From a virus (taxonomy: Duplodnaviria; Heunggongvirae; Uroviricota; Caudoviricetes), in the IMG/VR virus record IMGVR_UViG_2529292920_000017: DNA of 27,135 bases. The stretch is one strand, 5' to 3'. Of this stretch, positions 596-12,130 are shown in pieces (the first letter of the stretch is position 1; each line of letters starts with the position of its first letter). Below the pieces are notes generated by a model, which was given only the letters and a program-made list of their open reading frames with translations, had not been told where the DNA came from and did not search any database. Made by a program: the position numbers and the translations under genes.

Positions 596-1570
596 TTACC
601 CAGCAATAGGATTAAATCTCACCGCATCCTGCAAGTAATCCGGCGCAAGATGGGCATAAATCATCGTTGTCTGAATCTTTGCGTGCCCCAGAATTTTCTG
701 GAGCGTCAGAATATTGCCGCCGTTCATCATGAAATGACTGGCGAAGGTGTGGCGCAGCGCATGAACAGCCTGGCCGTCAGGAACATCAGGTGCGACCGTT
801 TTGATGACATCGCGAACCAATGGATAATCCAGCGTCGGAAACACCAGTTTCCCGCCCCGTTTTTTGATCTTTTCAAACAGGCTTTCAGAAATAGGAACGG
901 TACGGTTTTTGCTGTTCTTCGTTTTTGAAAAAGTGATTCGACAATGAAGAACACGGCGCTGCTCCAGTGCCGCTACCTCGCCCCATCGCGCCCCGGTCGA
1001 CAGAAGGATTTCGACAGCCAGCCGTTCATCGGGATTTTCAGCCAGTGCATCCAGCAACTGAACACATTCAGACTTACTCAGATATCCCATTTCGCGCTCG
1101 TTAACCTTCATTCCTTTAAGGCCTTGAACGGGGTTATCGTTAAGAAAATGGCCGGATGAGATGAGTGCGGTAAACATCGCGCTTAACGCCCCAATCTCTC
1201 GATTTATGGTGCTGGGCTGTATCCCCTGCTCTATCCTGGACACACGTAGCTCGGTGAGCATCGTTGTATTAAGTTTATGCACGCACGGGTCATCCATTGC
1301 CTCACTCAAGCGCAGCAATTTAAGGCGCGTGTTATGCCCTGACTTCATTAGCTGACCGTGGTATTTCCACCACAAGTCAATAAGCACTGACAGCGGACGG
1401 CGATCAATGGAGTTTCCTTTCCACTCATTGTTATGCTGTTGCGCCAGCACCCACCGCTCATATAAAACTGCATCCGATTTCGTTTTAAATTTTTTACGAA
1501 TGCGTTTGCCTTTACGCCCCTCCGGGCGCATGTCAAGAAGATATCCTCCCGGAATTGATTTTATGCTCAT
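596..1570 (-). CDS. int: tyrosine site-specific integrase, P2 Int-like
   Basis: ORF track 596..1720 minus; start reassigned to ATG at 1568-1570 (MSIKSIPGGYLLDMRPEGRKGKRIRKKF), which matches the N-terminus of P2-family integrases as remembered. C-terminal region carries the tyrosine recombinase signature (HALRHTFASHFMMNGGNILTLQKILGHAKIQTTMIYAHL, R...HxxR...Y). Lies next to the repressor as in P2. Confidence 0.9.
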   Translation of the reverse strand: MSIKSIPGGYLLDMRPEGRKGKRIRKKFKTKSDAVLYERWVLAQQHNNEWKGNSIDRRPLSVLIDLWWKYHGQLMKSGHNTRLKLLRLSEAMDDPCVHKLNTTMLTELRVSRIEQGIQPSTINREIGALSAMFTALISSGHFLNDNPVQGLKGMKVNEREMGYLSKSECVQLLDALAENPDERLAVEILLSTGARWGEVAALEQRRVLHCRITFSKTKNSKNRTVPISESLFEKIKKRGGKLVFPTLDYPLVRDVIKTVAPDVPDGQAVHALRHTFASHFMMNGGNILTLQKILGHAKIQTTMIYAHLAPDYLQDAVRFNPIAG

Positions 1571-1619
1571 TCGTGAAACCCCAGCGTTACAAGACCACCA
1601 TGCCCCCAGCGCTCCATGA

Positions 1620-1928
1620 TTAGCCGGGCTGTGTGCCAGTCTTGCGGGGTTTTTGAGAAGGCGATGTGCTTTTTGGCCCATCAGGGGAGAGAGACGGACT
1701 GATCTGCCCAGCAGCCTCATTTGTTTTTCCCGTCATAAGCCAATTCATGTACTTAAAAAAGCGAGGGTGATTAACAATCTTGATAAGCACTTCGCCCCCT
1801 ATGTTTTCAATCCGCCCCGTTTCATAACGACGCAAAGTGCCGATAGGCACATCAATCAGGCCGCAAAATTCTTCGCGCGTTAAATCCTCTGATTCACGAA
1901 TCACTCTAATTTTTTCACCGATAAGCAT
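1620..1928 (-). CDS. C: immunity repressor, P2 C-type (short HTH repressor)
   Basis: ORF track 1620..1964 minus (GTG at 1964). Start reassigned to ATG at 1926-1928 giving about 102 aa: MLIGEKIRVIRESEDLTREEFCGLIDVPIGTLRRYETGR... This parallels the P2 C repressor (ISEKIVLMRKSEYLSRQQLADLTGVPYGTLSYYESGR, recalled from memory) in sequence and size. Divergent from the rightward early operon. Confidence 0.8.
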   Translation of the reverse strand: MLIGEKIRVIRESEDLTREEFCGLIDVPIGTLRRYETGRIENIGGEVLIKIVNHPRFFKYMNWLMTGKTNEAAGQISPSLSPDGPKSTSPSQKPRKTGTQPG

Positions 1929-5232: not shown

Positions 5233-5622
5233 ATGATTGACGCTCATGACTTCACAAGATGGGTGCGCACACAGGACACCCGTCTGGCTCCCGTTCTTCA
5301 GGGATTATTTGATCTCTACATCCGTGGTCGTGACAACAGAGCACGCACCACAAAACCGGAAAATGCAGACACCCTTTATTTCACAGTAGACGACTGCTAC
5401 CGCGTGGACTTCACACCACACGGGCTGGCGTTGCATTGCCTGATACCACACGGAGAATCACTGCTGGCGTATTACGACTCCCCGGCCTCCGTATTTGCGG
5501 CAATGCTGGCGCATCGCACTGCTGGCGGGTGTGCCTCGCTGAGTGAATACACCGCTGAATTTAACCGCCTTTCTGCCCTCTTCTCGCAGGAGTGGCAGCG
5601 CGTGACGGGATACCAGCCATGA
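5233..5622 (+). CDS. hypothetical protein immediately upstream of the replication initiator (P2 gene B position)
   Basis: ATG at 5233; 129 aa; stop overlaps the gene A start (ATGA at 5619-5622). Positional analogy to P2 B only; no motif recognised. Confidence 0.5.
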   Translation: MIDAHDFTRWVRTQDTRLAPVLQGLFDLYIRGRDNRARTTKPENADTLYFTVDDCYRVDFTPHGLALHCLIPHGESLLAYYDSPASVFAAMLAHRTAGGCASLSEYTAEFNRLSALFSQEWQRVTGYQP

Positions 5623-8447
5623 GTGAGTTTGCATGGAGCTGGAATGAACCACGACCAGCCATTGATCCGGCCAGATTTACGGAGCACAGGCAGGAAACTG
5701 AAACCGACCTACAACGCGCCATCCGTTACTACCTTGAGGCAGACAAAAAGGCTCTGGAAGAACAGGAAGCGAAGGAGGAAGCCTTTTTCGCACAATCCAC
5801 CGTGGGTAAAAAACTCATGGCATCCCTTGAGGAAGCCGGACAGCGTGAAAAGCTGGCACAAAGCATCATCAGCAAGCGTCAGGCAACAGAACAAGACCCG
5901 GTGGCCCGTGCTTTTGCCACACTGAAGGTGCTTCCCGTTTATCTGCGTGAACCTCTGAGCCGCCACCTCTCTTTCCTGCGCAAAAAACAGGAAGCCGATC
6001 GCCAGAAAGGCAAAAAGAGCTGGCAGGCTGAACGCTACGCGCGCGGAACCCTGCGCAAAATATTCGAACGCCTGGACCGCACCGATCACCGCTGGCTGAC
6101 ACCGGGTTATCGCTCCCTTGCCGGACGCGAACGCCTGGACGATTTGCTTTACCTGCCGCAGCTCAACAAACACCAGATACAGACGCTGGCCACCATGACG
6201 GCGGCGATGTTCAGCAGCACCTTCGAAAAACTCTGCGATGGCTTTGGTGCGACTGATGGCGAACTGACCATGGATGTAACGCTGAAGGCGTATCAGATGC
6301 TGGCCCGCATGGCGTTACACCTGCACGCCATGCCTCCACATTATGACGCACTGACAACAGACAAAGACCGGAGGAACGAACCGGACACGGAGCTGCTGCC
6401 GGGCGCAATCCTTCGCCTGACCTGTGCGGAATGGTGGAAACGCAAACTGTGGCTGTTACGTTGCGAGTGGAGAGAAGAACAACTCCGCGCCGCCTGTCTG
6501 GTTTCCAGAAAAACATCACCCTATCTGAGCCAGGACGCGTTAAGCGAGTTTCGCGCACAGCGCGAGAAAACACGCGATTTCCTGAAAAGTTTCATGCTGG
6601 AAAACGAAGACGGGTTCACGATTGATCTCGAGACAGTGTATTACGCGGGAGTAAGTAACCCGGTTCACCGTAAGGCAGAAATGATGGCCACCATGAAGGG
6701 GCTGGAACTTCTGGCCGAAGCCCGTGGCGACAAAGCGGTGTTTCTGACTGTCACCTGCCCGTCAAAATACCACGCCACAACAGAGAACGGTCATCCGAAT
6801 CCCAAATGGAACGGGGCCACCATGCGCGACTCCAGCGATTACCTGGTTAACACGTTTTTTGCGGCGGTCCGCAAGAAACTGAACCGCGACGGCCTGCGCT
6901 GGTATGGCATCCGCACGGTGGAGCCTCACCATGACGGCACCGTGCACTGGCATATGATGGTCTTTGCTCATCCGGAAGAAATCGACACCATTGTGTCCCA
7001 CACCCGCGATATTGCCATTCAGGAAGACCGCCACGAGCTGGGCAATGATATTACTCCGCGCTTTAAGGTGGAGTATGTCGACGGCTCAAAAGGCACGCCA
7101 ACCAGCTACATCGCCACCTACATCGGAAAGAACCTGGACAGCCGCGCCGTGGATGGCATCGACCCGAAAACGGGCAAGCCACGCGTTGACCACGAAACCG
7201 GAAAATCAATGGCCGAGAGCGTGGAACGCGCCATCGGCTGGGCACGCCTTCACCGGGTCCGCCAGTTCCAGTTCTTTGGCATCCCCTCCCGTCAGGTATG
7301 GCGTGAACTCCGCCGCCTTGCCAGCCAGATGGCACGCAACCCGGAAGGCCCGCAACGGCTGAAGGATGATGCAATGGATGCGGTACTCGCTGCCGCTGAT
7401 GCCGGGTGTTTTGCCACCTACATTGAGAAACAGGGCGGCGTACTTGTTCCACGCAAAGACTACCTGATTCGCACCGCCTACGACCTCGCAGATGAGCTGA
7501 ACGATTACGGCGAACAGAGCGTACAGATTTACGGGATTTGGTCACCACTCATCGGGGAATCCTCCCGTGTGTGCACGCACCCGGATAACTGGAAGCTGGT
7601 AAGACGTAAACCGGAAGCGGAAGACAGCACCCGCGAAAATGGTTTTGACCTTCAGGGCGGCCCTGCCGCCCCTTGGACTCGTGGCAATAACTGTCCCCGT
7701 GTACAGGAAACGGACAACAACGGGACAGAACAGCCAGCACCGTGGTCGCAGCTCCCTGACGGCGTTGAAGTGAACGAATGGATGCGCTCACTGAAACGGC
7801 ACGAACGCCGGGCGCTGATGCGTTCGCTTCGTGACAAACAGGCAAAAAACAGCCGTGATGAAATGCAGAGCTGGACACAGAGCCGCAAACAGCAGCGGCC
7901 TTTGCCTGATAACCACGAACTACTCGCTAAAGAATGGCGGGAGTCTGCTGAATCTCTCGGCCTGCATATCGGTGAACAGCAGATGCAGCATCTGTTACGG
8001 GGCGGCAGTCTGTACGTTGACGGCAGCATCATTGCACCGCAGGGATTTGAAATTGTACGCAAACCGGATACCCGACCGGACAGCCGGATCACGCAGCTCT
8101 GGCAGCGCCTGAGCCGTAACCACGGCGTAAGCAGTACGGAGATCCGCCATAACCCGGTCGCCAGCTATCTGGAACAGCTGGGGACATCAGACCCCGAAGC
8201 CGCCGCACGCCTGGCATCCACACTTCAGCAAGACCAGAACACCATGAAAACACCCGTTACCGTGCTTTCTGACATGCTGCGCGCCATCCGCGACGCAGAG
8301 CACGCACAGAGAATCAGTGAAACCACTGAACGCGCCCGCCGCAAAGCAGACCTGCTGCGGGGTGGCCTGACCAGTGGAAACAAAAAACAGACAGAAACGG
8401 GATTCACAAATCCCGTAAATGAGCAAAAAACGCGCCGCGATATATGA
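5619..8447 (+). CDS. A: replication initiation protein, rolling-circle HUH endonuclease (P2 gene A family)
   Basis: ORF track 5592..8447 (GTG); start placed at ATG 5619 (MSEFAWSWNEP...). Contains HUH-type motif VHWHMMVF (around 6945-6968) and paired active-site tyrosines YIATYIGK (around 7105-7128), as in P2 A/phiX174 A-type initiators. About 942 aa, with a long low-complexity R/Q/E-rich C-terminal region. Confidence 0.85.
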   Translation: MSEFAWSWNEPRPAIDPARFTEHRQETETDLQRAIRYYLEADKKALEEQEAKEEAFFAQSTVGKKLMASLEEAGQREKLAQSIISKRQATEQDPVARAFATLKVLPVYLREPLSRHLSFLRKKQEADRQKGKKSWQAERYARGTLRKIFERLDRTDHRWLTPGYRSLAGRERLDDLLYLPQLNKHQIQTLATMTAAMFSSTFEKLCDGFGATDGELTMDVTLKAYQMLARMALHLHAMPPHYDALTTDKDRRNEPDTELLPGAILRLTCAEWWKRKLWLLRCEWREEQLRAACLVSRKTSPYLSQDALSEFRAQREKTRDFLKSFMLENEDGFTIDLETVYYAGVSNPVHRKAEMMATMKGLELLAEARGDKAVFLTVTCPSKYHATTENGHPNPKWNGATMRDSSDYLVNTFFAAVRKKLNRDGLRWYGIRTVEPHHDGTVHWHMMVFAHPEEIDTIVSHTRDIAIQEDRHELGNDITPRFKVEYVDGSKGTPTSYIATYIGKNLDSRAVDGIDPKTGKPRVDHETGKSMAESVERAIGWARLHRVRQFQFFGIPSRQVWRELRRLASQMARNPEGPQRLKDDAMDAVLAAADAGCFATYIEKQGGVLVPRKDYLIRTAYDLADELNDYGEQSVQIYGIWSPLIGESSRVCTHPDNWKLVRRKPEAEDSTRENGFDLQGGPAAPWTRGNNCPRVQETDNNGTEQPAPWSQLPDGVEVNEWMRSLKRHERRALMRSLRDKQAKNSRDEMQSWTQSRKQQRPLPDNHELLAKEWRESAESLGLHIGEQQMQHLLRGGSLYVDGSIIAPQGFEIVRKPDTRPDSRITQLWQRLSRNHGVSSTEIRHNPVASYLEQLGTSDPEAAARLASTLQQDQNTMKTPVTVLSDMLRAIRDAEHAQRISETTERARRKADLLRGGLTSGNKKQTETGFTNPVNEQKTRRDI

Positions 8448-8497
8448 AGCGCGCATAAAACAGGCAAAAACGGGATTTCAGAATCCCGTAAACGATT
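8385..8497. promoter_or_regulatory. parC-like centromere/operator candidate upstream of parM
   Basis: Two perfect 8-bp inverted repeats with 4-nt spacers: ACGGGATTcacaAATCCCGT at 8397-8416 and ACGGGATTtcagAATCCCGT at 8470-8489, each embedded in a longer direct repeat (AAACAGRCARAAACGGGATT...AATCCCGTAAA). Centres are about 73 bp apart. The first copy lies inside the 3' end of gene A, the second just upstream of the parM RBS. Confidence 0.5.
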
Positions 8498-8523
8498 AAT
8501 TAATCAACATAAGGAAAAGCGAC

Positions 8524-9483
8524 ATGAAAATTTGTATCGATGACGGCTCCACCAACATCAAGCTGGCATGGACTGAGAACGGCGAACGCCGCAACGCCAT
8601 CAGCCCGAACAGCTTCAAGTCGGAATGGTCTGCGCCGTTCGGTGGCACGCAGCCCGCGAACTACATGCTTGATGGCGTGCGCTATGGTTTTGATCCGGTC
8701 AGCGATCGCTTTGTCCAGACGACCGACACGCAATACCAGTACAGCGATGTGAATGTCATTGCCATTCATCACGCGCTGGTCAAATCAGGCATCACACCAC
8801 AGGAGGTGGATGTGGTTGTCACCCTGCCACTGAGCGAATATTTCGACACAAACGCACAGCCGGACATGGCCAACATCAACCGCAAAAAAGCAAACGTCAT
8901 GCGCCCGGTGGCGTACCAGAACGGAAAAGCATTCACTATCCGTAACGTACGGGTTATGCCTGAATCCATTCCGGCTGGTTTTAAAGCACTGGCTGACATG
9001 AGTCCGTTTGAATCCCTGCTGATTGTGGATTTAGGCGGAACCACGCTGGATGTGGCAAAGGTTCAGGGACAACTGGCAGGTATCAGCCAGGTGTTTTGCG
9101 ATCCACACGTAGGCGTTTCCCTGATGGCCGATGCCGTACTGTCGGTGATGGCCACTAACGGTATGCGTACCAGTCACCACATCGCCAATACCATTATCGA
9201 ACATCGCCATGATGAAGCCTGGCTGCGCCAGCACATCCACAATGACGCGCATTACGCCAGCCTGATGGCGGTTATTCGTGAAAAGGAAGAAACACTGAAA
9301 CAACGCGTGATCCGCGCGCTGGCGGGTTTTTCGGGTTACGGGCGGGTGATGGTTGTCGGTGGCGGGGCGGAGATTGTGGCACCCGCTATCCGCGAAGCCT
9401 GCGGAGTTAATGCGACTTTCATCGCGGACGGGGTGCCACAGTTTGCTCTGGTTAATGGGCTGTACGCAATGGACAAGGAGTAA
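8524..9483 (+). CDS. parM: actin-like segregation ATPase ParM/StbA
   Basis: ATG at 8524 with AAGGAAAAG upstream; 319 aa. N-terminus MKICIDDGSTNIKLAW and internal LLIVDLGGTTLDVA are the actin-fold phosphate-1 and phosphate-2 motifs. From memory the protein aligns along its length with plasmid R1 ParM (MLVFIDDGSTNIKLQW..., ...VMPESIPAG..., ...GGGAE...). Confidence 0.85.
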   Translation: MKICIDDGSTNIKLAWTENGERRNAISPNSFKSEWSAPFGGTQPANYMLDGVRYGFDPVSDRFVQTTDTQYQYSDVNVIAIHHALVKSGITPQEVDVVVTLPLSEYFDTNAQPDMANINRKKANVMRPVAYQNGKAFTIRNVRVMPESIPAGFKALADMSPFESLLIVDLGGTTLDVAKVQGQLAGISQVFCDPHVGVSLMADAVLSVMATNGMRTSHHIANTIIEHRHDEAWLRQHIHNDAHYASLMAVIREKEETLKQRVIRALAGFSGYGRVMVVGGGAEIVAPAIREACGVNATFIADGVPQFALVNGLYAMDKE

Positions 9484-9487
9484 ACCA

Positions 9488-9799
9488 ATGACGACACCAA
9501 CCAGACGAATAAGTTTCTATCTGAAGCCCGCCGCCGTCAAGAACGAAGGCGAAGCATGCGCCTGGCTGGACAGCCTTACACCAGAAGCCCGCAAAAGCGG
9601 CCAACGTGTGGCTTTTCTGGCCGGGCTGGCACTTCTGAAAATGAATCCGGCAGAGGCTTACCGACTGGCTGCATGGGCTGATGATGAAGCGTTATCAGTG
9701 ACACAAACCAGGACAGAACGCCCCGCATCACAGCCAGTATCAACCGCACAGATAACCAGTCAGATGGCCGGAAATATCCGGGCGTTATTTCCCGAATAA
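9488..9799 (+). CDS. parR: ParR-like centromere-binding protein (ribbon-helix-helix)
   Basis: ORF track 9353..9799; start placed at ATG 9488, 5 nt after the parM stop. 103 aa. RRISFYLKP, LDSLTPEARKSGQRVAFLAGLALL and the C-terminal NIRALFPE parallel R1 ParR (RRTIAFKLNP, LDSIPQGERSRLNRAALTAGLALY, NILRSLFPKE) as recalled from memory. Confidence 0.7.
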   Translation: MTTPTRRISFYLKPAAVKNEGEACAWLDSLTPEARKSGQRVAFLAGLALLKMNPAEAYRLAAWADDEALSVTQTRTERPASQPVSTAQITSQMAGNIRALFPE

Positions 9800-9862
9800 T
9801 ACAACATCAGGGCGCATCCGCCCTGATGACTTTAATCCGGGAACACAAACAAAGGGGACACA

Positions 9863-10234
9863 ATGCAACACATTGACAGAGAAAAAGCGCAGCGACTGAT
9901 TGAGCGGATGGAAGCGCTGGCGAAAGAAGAAAATGTCAACATCCAAAAAATAGCTGAATGTGGCCAGATAGTTCTTCGTCGTGAAAAAGACCTCAAACAA
10001 CTGATGTCTGGCGAAACCAGCAAAACATGGACTTCAGGCGAGAAGACGGTTTATTGCAGTTTCTGCAATAAATCCCAGTACGAAGTCACAAAGGTGATTG
10101 CCGGACCGTCTGTTTACATCTGCAATGAATGCGTGGATTTGTGCAATGAAATTATCAGGAAAGAAGTGACAGACAAAAAGGAAAAAACGCATGAACAGAA
10201 AACAGAAACAAGAGTTGAAATACTTCTTACGTAA
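9863..10234 (+). CDS. stand-alone ClpX-type C4 zinc-finger protein
   Basis: ATG at 9863 with AAAGGGGA upstream; 123 aa. C-terminal [38 protein letters not shown] is near-identical in pattern to the ClpX N-terminal zinc-binding domain ([38 protein letters not shown], from memory). There is no AAA+ module. N-terminal 60 aa is a charged, probably helical region. AT-rich gene. Confidence 0.75.
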
Positions 10235-10598
10235 AGAAATTGCCAGGCTTGAAGATGCAGAGTCACAATCATCAGAAATTCCGTTCGGAATGGATATCAA
10301 CGACGCCCGTATGCTTCAGGCATACCGTATAGCTCAGGCTGCACTACAGACAAAACCGTTAAATAACATACATGAAAAGTATGATTATTTTACGGATACC
10401 GCTTGCTTGCTGACATCAGAAGAACAAAAGATAGCCCAACTTTTAGGCGACGCATGGAACCTGTATTTAACATTGCCAGTTGAGCATCCAATGGGTAGAG
10501 ATGAATTTTGCCGGGCAATTCATCATTGCCAAAATATGGTGTTGGCACGCCCGGCCATCAGGGCGTTGGCCAGGAAGGGGCAAGGCTATAAAAGATAA
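10191..10598 (+). CDS. hypothetical protein (135 aa), overlaps the zinc-finger gene by 44 nt in another frame
   Basis: ATG at 10191 with AAAGGA about 9 nt upstream; AT-rich. The last gene before a terminator hairpin. No motif recognised. Confidence 0.5.
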
Positions 10599-10602
10599 GT
10601 AA

Positions 10603-10629
10603 AACGCCCTCCTCCAGGGCGTTTATTTC
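10603..10629 (+). terminator. Rho-independent terminator candidate
   Basis: AACGCCCT-cctcc-AGGGCGTT hairpin followed by TTATTTC, 5 nt after the stop of the 10191..10598 gene. Confidence 0.6.
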
Positions 10630-11083: not shown

Positions 11084-12130
11084 TCAGGATGTGGGCTGGA
11101 TGTCTAACAGTGCGTAAGGGTTAAAGCGGATCACCTCTTCGCCAAGCCAGTCATTGATGTGCTTCATGGCCTCCATGACGGGCATCAGCTCGTTAATTGC
11201 GTAAACCCGCGCGGCCTTCTCCACATCACCAAACGCACTTTTTTCACCCGGCATCGCCCCCATCAGTTGCGGCGGAACGCGGTGCGCAGCCAGCACATCA
11301 TCACGGGATGCCGCCTTAACATTCATGAACTCATCCTTTGCGGTGATCTGCTGGAACGGCAAAATTTGCACCCCCTCTTTGCCCCCGTTGGGCGCATGAA
11401 TGAGCACGTTTTTAAACGCACCACCACCACGCGCACCCTGTAGCGTTTCTTTCAGGGAGTCCATGCTTTCGCGGTTTACCTGCGCTGCACCGATGTAGAT
11501 GATGCACCCGGCGTGGGATCCGTTGTCGTAATACAGTTTTCTGAACATGTCCGCCGAATGAGACAGGCTGGCCGAGAGTAATGCGCCGAGATATTCCGGC
11601 ATGCCGTAGATTTCCTGGTTAATGTCAGGATTCATCAGGTGACACACTTTGCCTGGGCGAAACTGAAACGCATCCTTGCCATCCTGCACATACCACCATG
11701 ATTCAAGATCGCTTCCGCGTCGCATGTATTTCGCCAGTGCGTGCCGTAATTTAAGCGGTTCGCCGAGCATATTGCTTCGAAGCTCAAGGAATGCGTTACC
11801 GAACACAAACCAGTCCAGCGCCAGCGCCGAGAAATCCTGCCGGGAAAGCAGCGGGTGCGGGATGTAGCAACCGAGCAATACATTGCGCTTAAAGTAAAGC
11901 GCAGACTGATGCCAGGACGTTTGCCGGGCAGCTCTTGCCAGACCGTACCAGTCCACCGGGGTTTCATACCACCGCCCGTTATCAGCACAGTACATATTGT
12001 CCAGCAGGTCATGCCCGGTCAGGCGATAAGGACCATCAAATGTGAATGCACTGAGCGATGATTCTTTCCTGAGCGCATCAGCGAGATCAATGCGTGAACT
12101 CATGCGCACTTTTTTATTTTTTCTGCTCAT
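11084..12130 (-). CDS. Q: portal protein (P2 gpQ family)
   Basis: 348 aa, ATG at 12128-12130 overlapping the terminase stop (ATGA). Size and position match P2 Q: downstream of the large terminase on the leftward late operon next to cos. Confidence 0.85.
   Translation of the reverse strand: MSRKNKKVRMSSRIDLADALRKESSLSAFTFDGPYRLTGHDLLDNMYCADNGRWYETPVDWYGLARAARQTSWHQSALYFKRNVLLGCYIPHPLLSRQDFSALALDWFVFGNAFLELRSNMLGEPLKLRHALAKYMRRGSDLESWWYVQDGKDAFQFRPGKVCHLMNPDINQEIYGMPEYLGALLSASLSHSADMFRKLYYDNGSHAGCIIYIGAAQVNRESMDSLKETLQGARGGGAFKNVLIHAPNGGKEGVQILPFQQITAKDEFMNVKAASRDDVLAAHRVPPQLMGAMPGEKSAFGDVEKAARVYAINELMPVMEAMKHINDWLGEEVIRFNPYALLDIQPTS

Follow-up and report, generated by a model that had tools for sequence, protein, structure and literature searches.

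A candidate type II partition cassette in the lineage core of P88-like (Xuanwuvirus) prophages of Escherichia coli

The parM-parR locus and its products

The window analysed here is a 27,135-nt stretch of viral DNA (IMG/VR record IMGVR_UViG_2529292920_000017), given as one strand, 5′ to 3′. It holds an integrated P2-like (P88-type) Escherichia coli prophage of the genus Xuanwuvirus (Peduoviridae), and the subject of this report is a pair of partition genes within that prophage, parM and parR, with the two palindromic repeats upstream of them. All of these lie between gene A, which encodes the rolling-circle replication endonuclease (plus strand, from 5592 or ATG 5619 to 8447; Phage_GPA Pfam match, 4e-131), and the portal gene. 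The pair begins 76 nt 3′ of the gene A stop codon (8445-8447), on the same strand. parM (8524-9483) encodes an actin-fold partition ATPase of 319 aa, and parR (9488-9799) encodes an adaptor protein of 103 aa. The true start of parR was placed at ATG 9488, four bases past the parM stop; the list of open reading frames (ORFs) had given TTG 9353. P2-type morphogenesis genes accompany the two genes in the window. The element was taken to be integrated because its left end is core chromosome (positions 1-2400 were matched in part by all 5426 E. coli genomes) and an integrase gene is present (596-1720, minus strand). The location proposed by the initial annotation, between gene A and the cos or portal end of an integrative P2-like prophage, was confirmed.

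ParM was matched to Pfam StbA_N (6.9e-82) and to the ParM C-terminal domain (1.3e-68), and the solved R1 ParM (1mwk) was matched at an E-value of 1.6e-92. Identity was 47% to R1 ParM, 53% to the ParM of an IncL/M plasmid and 47-48% to that of the phage-plasmid D6. In an alignment with these proteins the phosphate-1 (DDGSTNIK), phosphate-2 (DLGGTTLD) and adenosine (GGGA) motifs were invariant, as were E147 and D169, which align with E148 and D170 of R1. parM was intact at 319 aa in 80 of 80 IMG/VR relatives, and pairwise ratios of nonsynonymous to synonymous substitution (dN/dS) were 0.01-0.15 (eight loci). These ratios show that very strong purifying selection acts on parM over its full length, and by profile match and motif content its product is a genuine R1-type ParM.

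ParR was assigned to PF10784 (Plasmid_stab_B, the StbB/ParR family) at 4e-24, the family of the cognate adaptor of R1-type ParM. A single-sequence phmmer search of ParR against PDB sequences gave no match even at an E-value of 10. A profile built from the ParRs of this phage lineage alone had pB171 ParR (2JD3) as its top PDB match (E = 0.0012), and with plasmid ParRs added the same structure was matched at 1.4e-13. The archetype of type II systems, R1/NR1 ParMRC (StbAB), has the same order (cis site, parM, parR) and the same ParR Pfam family; R1 ParR shares with the window protein an N-terminal DNA-binding domain and an aligned ...KN....L.. tail, at an identity of only 28%. The initial annotation had called an actin-like ParM with both phosphate-binding motifs next to a ParR-like protein. 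Both identifications were confirmed, and the contrary case that it had named, another actin-fold ATPase with no cognate adaptor, did not arise.

Three parts were distinguished in ParR: a conserved N-terminal DNA-binding domain (residues 1-65), a linker that is hypervariable (66-95) and, at the C-terminus, a conserved tail, NIRALFPE. The ratio of nonsynonymous to synonymous polymorphism (pN/pS) was 0.13 for the first, 0.50 for the second and 0.05 for the last eight residues, which makes the tail the most constrained part of the protein. The tail (NI[RQ]xxFP[E]) was essentially invariant in 15 diverse ParR alleles and aligned with the C-terminus of R1 ParR, the last 17 residues of which are the ParM-binding peptide (PMC3794156). 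By this alignment the tail would be a putative ParM-binding peptide. A second segment, RRISFYLKP, was invariant across alleles otherwise only 52% identical, all of which stand behind the same palindromes; from knowledge of the family we take it to be the predicted DNA-reading beta-strand.

parR was intact (103-104 aa) in 76 of the 80 IMG/VR relatives, and the other four copies may lie at contig ends. The protein was far more polymorphic than ParM, with 46 distinct sequences among 77. Two deep alleles, 52% identical to each other, stand behind ParMs that are 98% identical; a sub-lineage of 569R5, ST131 and O157 prophages carries the 52%-identical allele with the same ParM and the same palindromes. 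Such a pattern of constraint is what an adaptor in working order should show if it recognises a single DNA site and holds a single filament protein.

The palindrome pair upstream of parM

Two direct 42-nt repeats, 81% alike and 73 bp apart, precede parM on the plus strand. Each contains a perfect 8+4+8 palindrome of 20 bp, ACGGGATT-N4-AATCCCGT. Copy 1 (8381-8422; palindrome ACGGGATTCACAAATCCCGT at 8397-8416) is a parC-like candidate ParR site within the last codons of gene A. Copy 2 (8454-8495; palindrome ACGGGATTTCAGAATCCCGT at 8470-8489) is intergenic, 34 nt before the parM ATG, and is a candidate ParR site or operator. The paired palindromic repeats described by the initial annotation were recovered in this form. 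The palindrome pattern did not occur elsewhere in the 27 kb with three mismatches allowed (chance expectation, 0.10 matches), and none of 100 shuffles gave two or more matches. The centres of the half-sites are 10 bp apart, or one helical turn, and the two sites are 73 bp apart, or about seven turns.

Conservation of the sites could be followed over a limited range of divergence. A ParM scan of genome contigs gave three loci, all >97% identical, and one of viral contigs gave 80, none below 98% identity; for comparing the sites, a Hafnia relative was the most diverged that could be used (ParM 95%, ParR 74% identical). In this relative the 3′ end of gene A is much changed. The pair of 42-nt repeats, the 73-nt spacing and the core GGGATT-N4-AATCCC are kept, and the outer bases and the central 4 nt differ.

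The palindromes are the best candidate for the ParR site, with an operator-like, minimal architecture. In R1, ten ParR dimers bind the ten 11-bp iterons of parC and build a ParR ring (PMC3794156). An R1-type locus showed A/C-rich runs of 11-bp iterons on both sides of the promoter. Where R1 has five direct 11-bp iterons on either side of a promoter, the window has two 20-bp palindromes, 73 bp apart; a promoter of its own was not detected for parMR, and the replicon that carries it integrates and is a phage. Further parC-like repeats were searched for 3′ of parR and none were found. A sequence given for the nick site of the P2 origin had no match in the window, which left the origin unplaced relative to the palindromes.

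On the minus strand the palindromes have terminator-like scores, and folding of the region is strong (z = -6), which follows trivially from the palindromes themselves. A role as an RNA hairpin or minus-strand terminator was considered and found unsupported: the single-arm transitions seen among relatives are uncompensated, and there is no minus-strand gene to terminate at this place. A-tracts of the form CA(N)AAAAC were noted by eye at about 8381, 8392, 8425, 8455 and 8465, in a roughly 10-11-bp register around the palindromes, which suggests intrinsically bent DNA or degenerate extra half-sites.

Lineage core and variable cargo

The segment 8300-10700 of the window was 97-98% identical to Escherichia phage P88 and other Xuanwuvirus. 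In P88, 520873, P884B11, PhiR44_2 and Citrobacter phage phiSM the order is the same: gene A, parM, parR, a variable slot, portal. The RefSeq record of P88 lists a replication endonuclease, a 'plasmid segregation protein ParM', a 'partition protein', small ORFs, portal and terminase. The modules of these phages have ParM 98-99% and ParR 84-98% identical to those of the window, with the same upstream palindromes, and the phages differ from the window only in the cargo past parR and in the immunity/integrase module. The module is kept from Escherichia to Salmonella, Citrobacter and Hafnia. The search of related prophages that the initial annotation had proposed therefore found the cassette at the same position in P88 and other Xuanwuvirus.

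Among 5426 complete E. coli genomes, parMR was found in 1307 (24%), and 1453 of 1455 copies were chromosomal. At a coverage of at least 80%, the P88-type gene A segment was present in 1355 genomes and parMR in 1278, so that the two largely travel together. The cassette had been thought unusual for a P2-like phage; at 97-99% identity in P88 and other Xuanwuvirus, and with this frequency in E. coli, it is not.

Coverage along the locus was measured in the 64 IMG/VR relatives that extend far enough. The segment 8000-9500 (end of gene A, repeats, parM) was common to 95-100% of them, and the DNA of parR to 75-92%. Only 9-27% shared 9800-10600, and from about 10650, in the cos-proximal region, 83-85% again did. 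The relatives carry quite different genes 3′ of parR. Collinearity ended at the parR stop (9795-9799) in 18 loci, at the hairpin (9825-9828) in 17 and inside parR (9540-9555 and 9641) in 16. From the drop in coverage past parR, the variable slot begins after parR, and parMR is its fixed neighbour. By this distribution parMR is lineage core of P88-like phages and not hotspot cargo. At E <= 0.01 no PADLOC model matched ParM, ParR or either of the two ORFs that follow parR. The suggestion that the cassette is cargo of an anti-phage hotspot was accordingly not upheld, the cassette being conserved across the 64 relatives and the slot starting only after parR.

The breakpoints inside parR fall just past its conserved 5′ end, and exchange of cargo seems to drag the parR linker and tail along. 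The boundary between the conserved module and the cargo slot is marked by a GC-rich hairpin, CATCAGGGCG-N4-CGCCCTGATG (9805-9828). The slot (9829-10624, plus strand) holds two ORFs and ends in a terminator (10602-10624); beyond it the portal gene (11084-12130) lies on the minus strand, as does the terminase gene. The first ORF (9863-10234, 123 aa) is little more than a ClpX-type C4 zinc finger (Pfam, 8.6e-18). The second (10191-10598, 135 aa) overlaps it and has no Pfam match; its C-terminal half matches a PHROG labelled 'DNA ligase'. The DNA of 9863-10598 was present in only about 9-18% of the 64 relatives. A free ClpX N-domain protein might interfere with recognition of substrates or adaptors by ClpXP.

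Elsewhere the window has a mosaic structure. Neither its integrase/repressor/cox module nor the 5′ part of gene A (1-2339 and 5238-5940) aligned to P88 or to E. coli GB089, the closest match for parMR, in which the prophage lies next to pheA. The different immunity/integration module of the window matched one end of a prophage in E. coli O55:H7 CB9615 at 100% identity. In Escherichia albertii NBRC 107761 (5965-8231), other small genes and an Ogr-like zinc-finger ORF come after parM and a ParR allele, and the portal is only about 30% identical to that of the window; parMR may also reside on this differently built P2-family element. A 226-kb contig labelled Vagococcus sp. WN89Y, a Gram-positive (NZ_JBQPOM010000071.1), contained a P88-like prophage segment at 97% identity, which is probably assembly contamination or mislabelling.

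Proposed function and competing explanations

The module is read here, with a probability of roughly 0.55, as a working DNA-segregation cassette of type II (ParMRC-type), fixed in the P88-like (Xuanwuvirus) phages of the P2 family and defining for that lineage. A simple consensus scan gave no sigma-70-like promoter between gene A and parM, hand inspection of this gap gave only weak -10-like AT-rich hexamers, and no plus-strand terminator-like site was found in it. Since neither a promoter nor a plus-strand terminator was found after gene A, parMR is most simply the tail of the early (replication) operon, and would be co-transcribed with gene A by read-through. In P2-family phages a lysogen keeps the early operon repressed, and infection or induction switches it on; rolling-circle replication by gene A yields monomeric double-stranded circles. 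For these two reasons the target would be free circular phage DNA and not the integrated prophage.

The mechanism proposed for the cassette is as follows. ParM and ParR would be made after infection or induction and would be silent in the repressed, integrated prophage. ParR, as an adaptor of the ribbon-helix-helix type, would bind the two palindromes straddling the end of gene A, and its conserved C-terminal tail would capture the ends of ParM filaments. Growing filaments would then push apart, or position, the monomeric circular genomes that arise from gene A rolling-circle replication. The benefit may be a spatial spreading of replicating or packaging templates, a copy for both daughters before integration or after excision, or both.

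To our knowledge only two partition systems of integrated elements provide experimental precedent, namely srpMRC of the SXT/R391 integrative and conjugative elements and AlpAC of the prophage CGP3. Like the window module, srpMRC is an actin-type partition system that belongs to the conserved core of an element usually found integrated. Its genes are expressed together with int, it binds the region upstream of itself, and with it the excised, replicating form is lost less often (Carraro et al., 2015, PMC4489591). It acts on a transient circular form that replicates by the rolling-circle mode, and is expressed with excision and replication functions (PMC4489591). The window ParM and ParR are clear members of the R1 family, whereas SrpM is only a distant relative of R1 ParM and a ParR domain cannot be recognised in SrpR; the function of srpMRC is backed by a stabilisation assay and electrophoretic mobility shifts, whereas the window module is known here from sequence. 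AlpAC/alpS of the Corynebacterium glutamicum prophage CGP3 likewise combines an actin-like filament protein, a DNA-binding adaptor and upstream repeats. It is induced early and links circular phage DNA to filaments, and its loss halves the copy number of the excised circle (Donovan et al., 2015, PMC4446434). The host of CGP3 is Gram-positive, AlpC comes from another actin-like family, and the adaptor gene order and the repeats (TTAAnnG) differ from those of the window. By analogy, the window module may parallel both systems.

Several points weigh against a working segregation cassette. The ribbon-helix-helix fold of ParR is a prediction from sequence, and an AlphaFold2 monomer model built on a 15-sequence alignment was poor (predicted local distance difference test score, pLDDT, 56); a poor monomer model is expected of an obligate-dimer fold. 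The palindromes may be only an operator, because there are two sites (four half-sites) against the ten iterons of R1, and the IncL/M and D6 relatives have multiple short direct iterons upstream. Single-arm variants were common among 78 relatives: GGGACT in palindrome 1 in 27-28 (by reading of shifted copies) and AATCCT in palindrome 2 in 21, so that the sites tolerate change. The lack of a promoter, on which the operon argument leans, comes from a simple consensus scan. Active partition would not obviously be needed by a lytic phage that makes many copies of its genome, and no functional study of a P88-like parMR was found in the literature.

Among the alternatives, a facultative phage-plasmid is considered unlikely. 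In this reading the phage would alternate between integration and a circular low-copy episome, replicated by gene A and partitioned by ParMRC, that lasts for generations. P88 is among the predicted phage-plasmids, for which 'episomal and integrative states' were proposed, and the criterion behind its listing is plasmid-type partition and/or replication genes together with a full virion set (Pfeifer et al., 2021, PMC7969092), which the window has in parMR and the P2-type morphogenesis genes; the dual-state hypothesis for P88 is thus already in print. The closest phage ParM outside the genus is that of D6, a P1-like phage-plasmid. D6 is the only other phage in a collection of 50,697 records with an R1-type ParM followed by a ParR homologue, and it is a true plasmid prophage; its upstream repeats are multiple, short and direct (TTCTCAA-type), not palindromes, and its ParR is 26% identical to that of the window. 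In one record, NZ_CP148288.1 (E. coli Z1323PEC0009, from a cat), a complete P88-like genome is deposited as a circular 'plasmid' of 34,461 bp. A phage 100% identical to it (4.5 kb compared) is chromosomal in the sister isolate Z1323HEC0067 (human; NZ_CP148378.1). The two isolates apparently come from the same project, judged by strain names and accessions.

A single circular record can, however, stem from spontaneous induction at DNA extraction, and the census stands at all but two of 1455 copies in the chromosome. The window itself is integrated and has an integrase; lysogeny kept up outside the chromosome, by which phage-plasmids are defined, is not indicated by the window or by the E. coli census, and a transient or rare episomal state may still occur. 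Rolling-circle replication by a cis-acting A protein is not known to sustain copy-controlled plasmid replication. Two further plasmid-labelled records do not help the case: NZ_CP049283.1 is a linear, IS1-riddled contig, and NZ_MK439959.1 is an IncC plasmid that has captured a prophage fragment through IS26. In the latter, a 228-kb conjugative KPC plasmid, the P88-like piece (14053-37928) carries gene A, parM and parR between IS26 copies and coexists with the partition functions of the plasmid itself. The other 'plasmid' records with the module are very large (272 kb to 1.4 Mb); among the records inspected, NZ_CP148288.1 is the only one that looks like a free circular phage genome. The extrachromosomal mode raised by the initial annotation therefore has a published proposal and one circular record of 34.5 kb in its favour and about 1450 chromosomal copies against it; a stable plasmid state is poorly supported, and public assemblies give almost no support for a stable episome.

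Quite improbable is a role for the module as an accessory of replication or regulation, in which ParR would serve mainly as a repressor bound to an operator, or as a roadblock, where gene A meets parM, or ParM and ParR would stimulate the HUH endonuclease A at the origin, or both. The sites have the classical layout of a ribbon-helix-helix operator, two palindromes with half-sites one turn apart, and not that of an iteron array; one lies in gene A and the other just 5′ of parM, and the module is always joined to gene A. Protein A is an HUH endonuclease, and the relaxase TraI is likewise an HUH enzyme. ParM and ParR of R1 bind TraI and stimulate its nicking (PMC4949242). Against this role, every nucleotide-binding motif of ParM is kept under purifying selection over its whole length, and nothing in ParR is under tighter constraint than the putative ParM-binding tail. 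Taken together, the two observations indicate a working filament-adaptor pair, and for a contact between A and ParM there is no supporting evidence.

Very unlikely is exclusion or incompatibility, by which the prophage centromere and ParR would destabilise plasmids or phage-plasmids sharing the par system, or the cassette would serve as anti-phage cargo. P2-like phages carry defence genes in a slot between gene A and cos, beside which the module lies, and ParR is highly polymorphic. This polymorphism lies in the linker, where constraint is relaxed, and not in the DNA-binding domain; the module is conserved, not variable, and the PADLOC search was negative. A tblastn search of ParR against PLSDB (72,556 plasmids) gave seven records, all carrying the prophage. 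DNA matches in true plasmids were confined to a part of the parM coding sequence (about 67% identity) and did not extend to the upstream repeats, and R1, IncL/M and D6 use different iterons. The action against resident plasmids suggested by the initial annotation is disfavoured accordingly, since only prophage-carrying records share the ParR or the repeats. That the module is an inert relic of past recombination with a plasmid, as might be thought of a prophage that replicates passively with the chromosome and has no obvious need for partition, is refuted by the selection data: both genes are intact in nearly all relatives, dN/dS is low, constraint in ParR follows its domains and the module is kept from Escherichia to Hafnia.

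The presence of parMR in P88-like phages is already known, and what is described here is a rediscovery of an annotated feature. NCBI annotation names the module as ParM and a partitioning/stability protein in >1300 RefSeq genomes, and a parM-type gene of phiSM has been listed as a 'fitness' gene (PMC6456863); the P88 paper makes no mention of a partition module. Added here are the lineage-core status of the module, the boundary of the slot at the parR stop or the next hairpin, the atypical pair of palindromes, the domain-wise constraint on ParR and a census that speaks against a stable episome. Partition systems are usually thought of as plasmid equipment, and it is a piece of unexplained phage biology that a type II cassette should be fixed, and strongly selected, in an integrative prophage lineage that ranks among the commonest in E. 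coli; P88 and E. coli make it easy to test. A further step beyond the segregation cassette preferred above is tentative and rather doubtful: ParMRC may run a second lifestyle of actively partitioned, gene A-replicated circles, which would make the phage a facultative phage-plasmid whose mini-centromere is two palindromes, or ParM filaments may, together with A, organise in space the rolling-circle replication and packaging of monomeric circles, much as R1 ParMR works with TraI. If true, either version would mean that, for the first time, an actin-based system of DNA handling has a defined role in an integrative coliphage of the classical kind.

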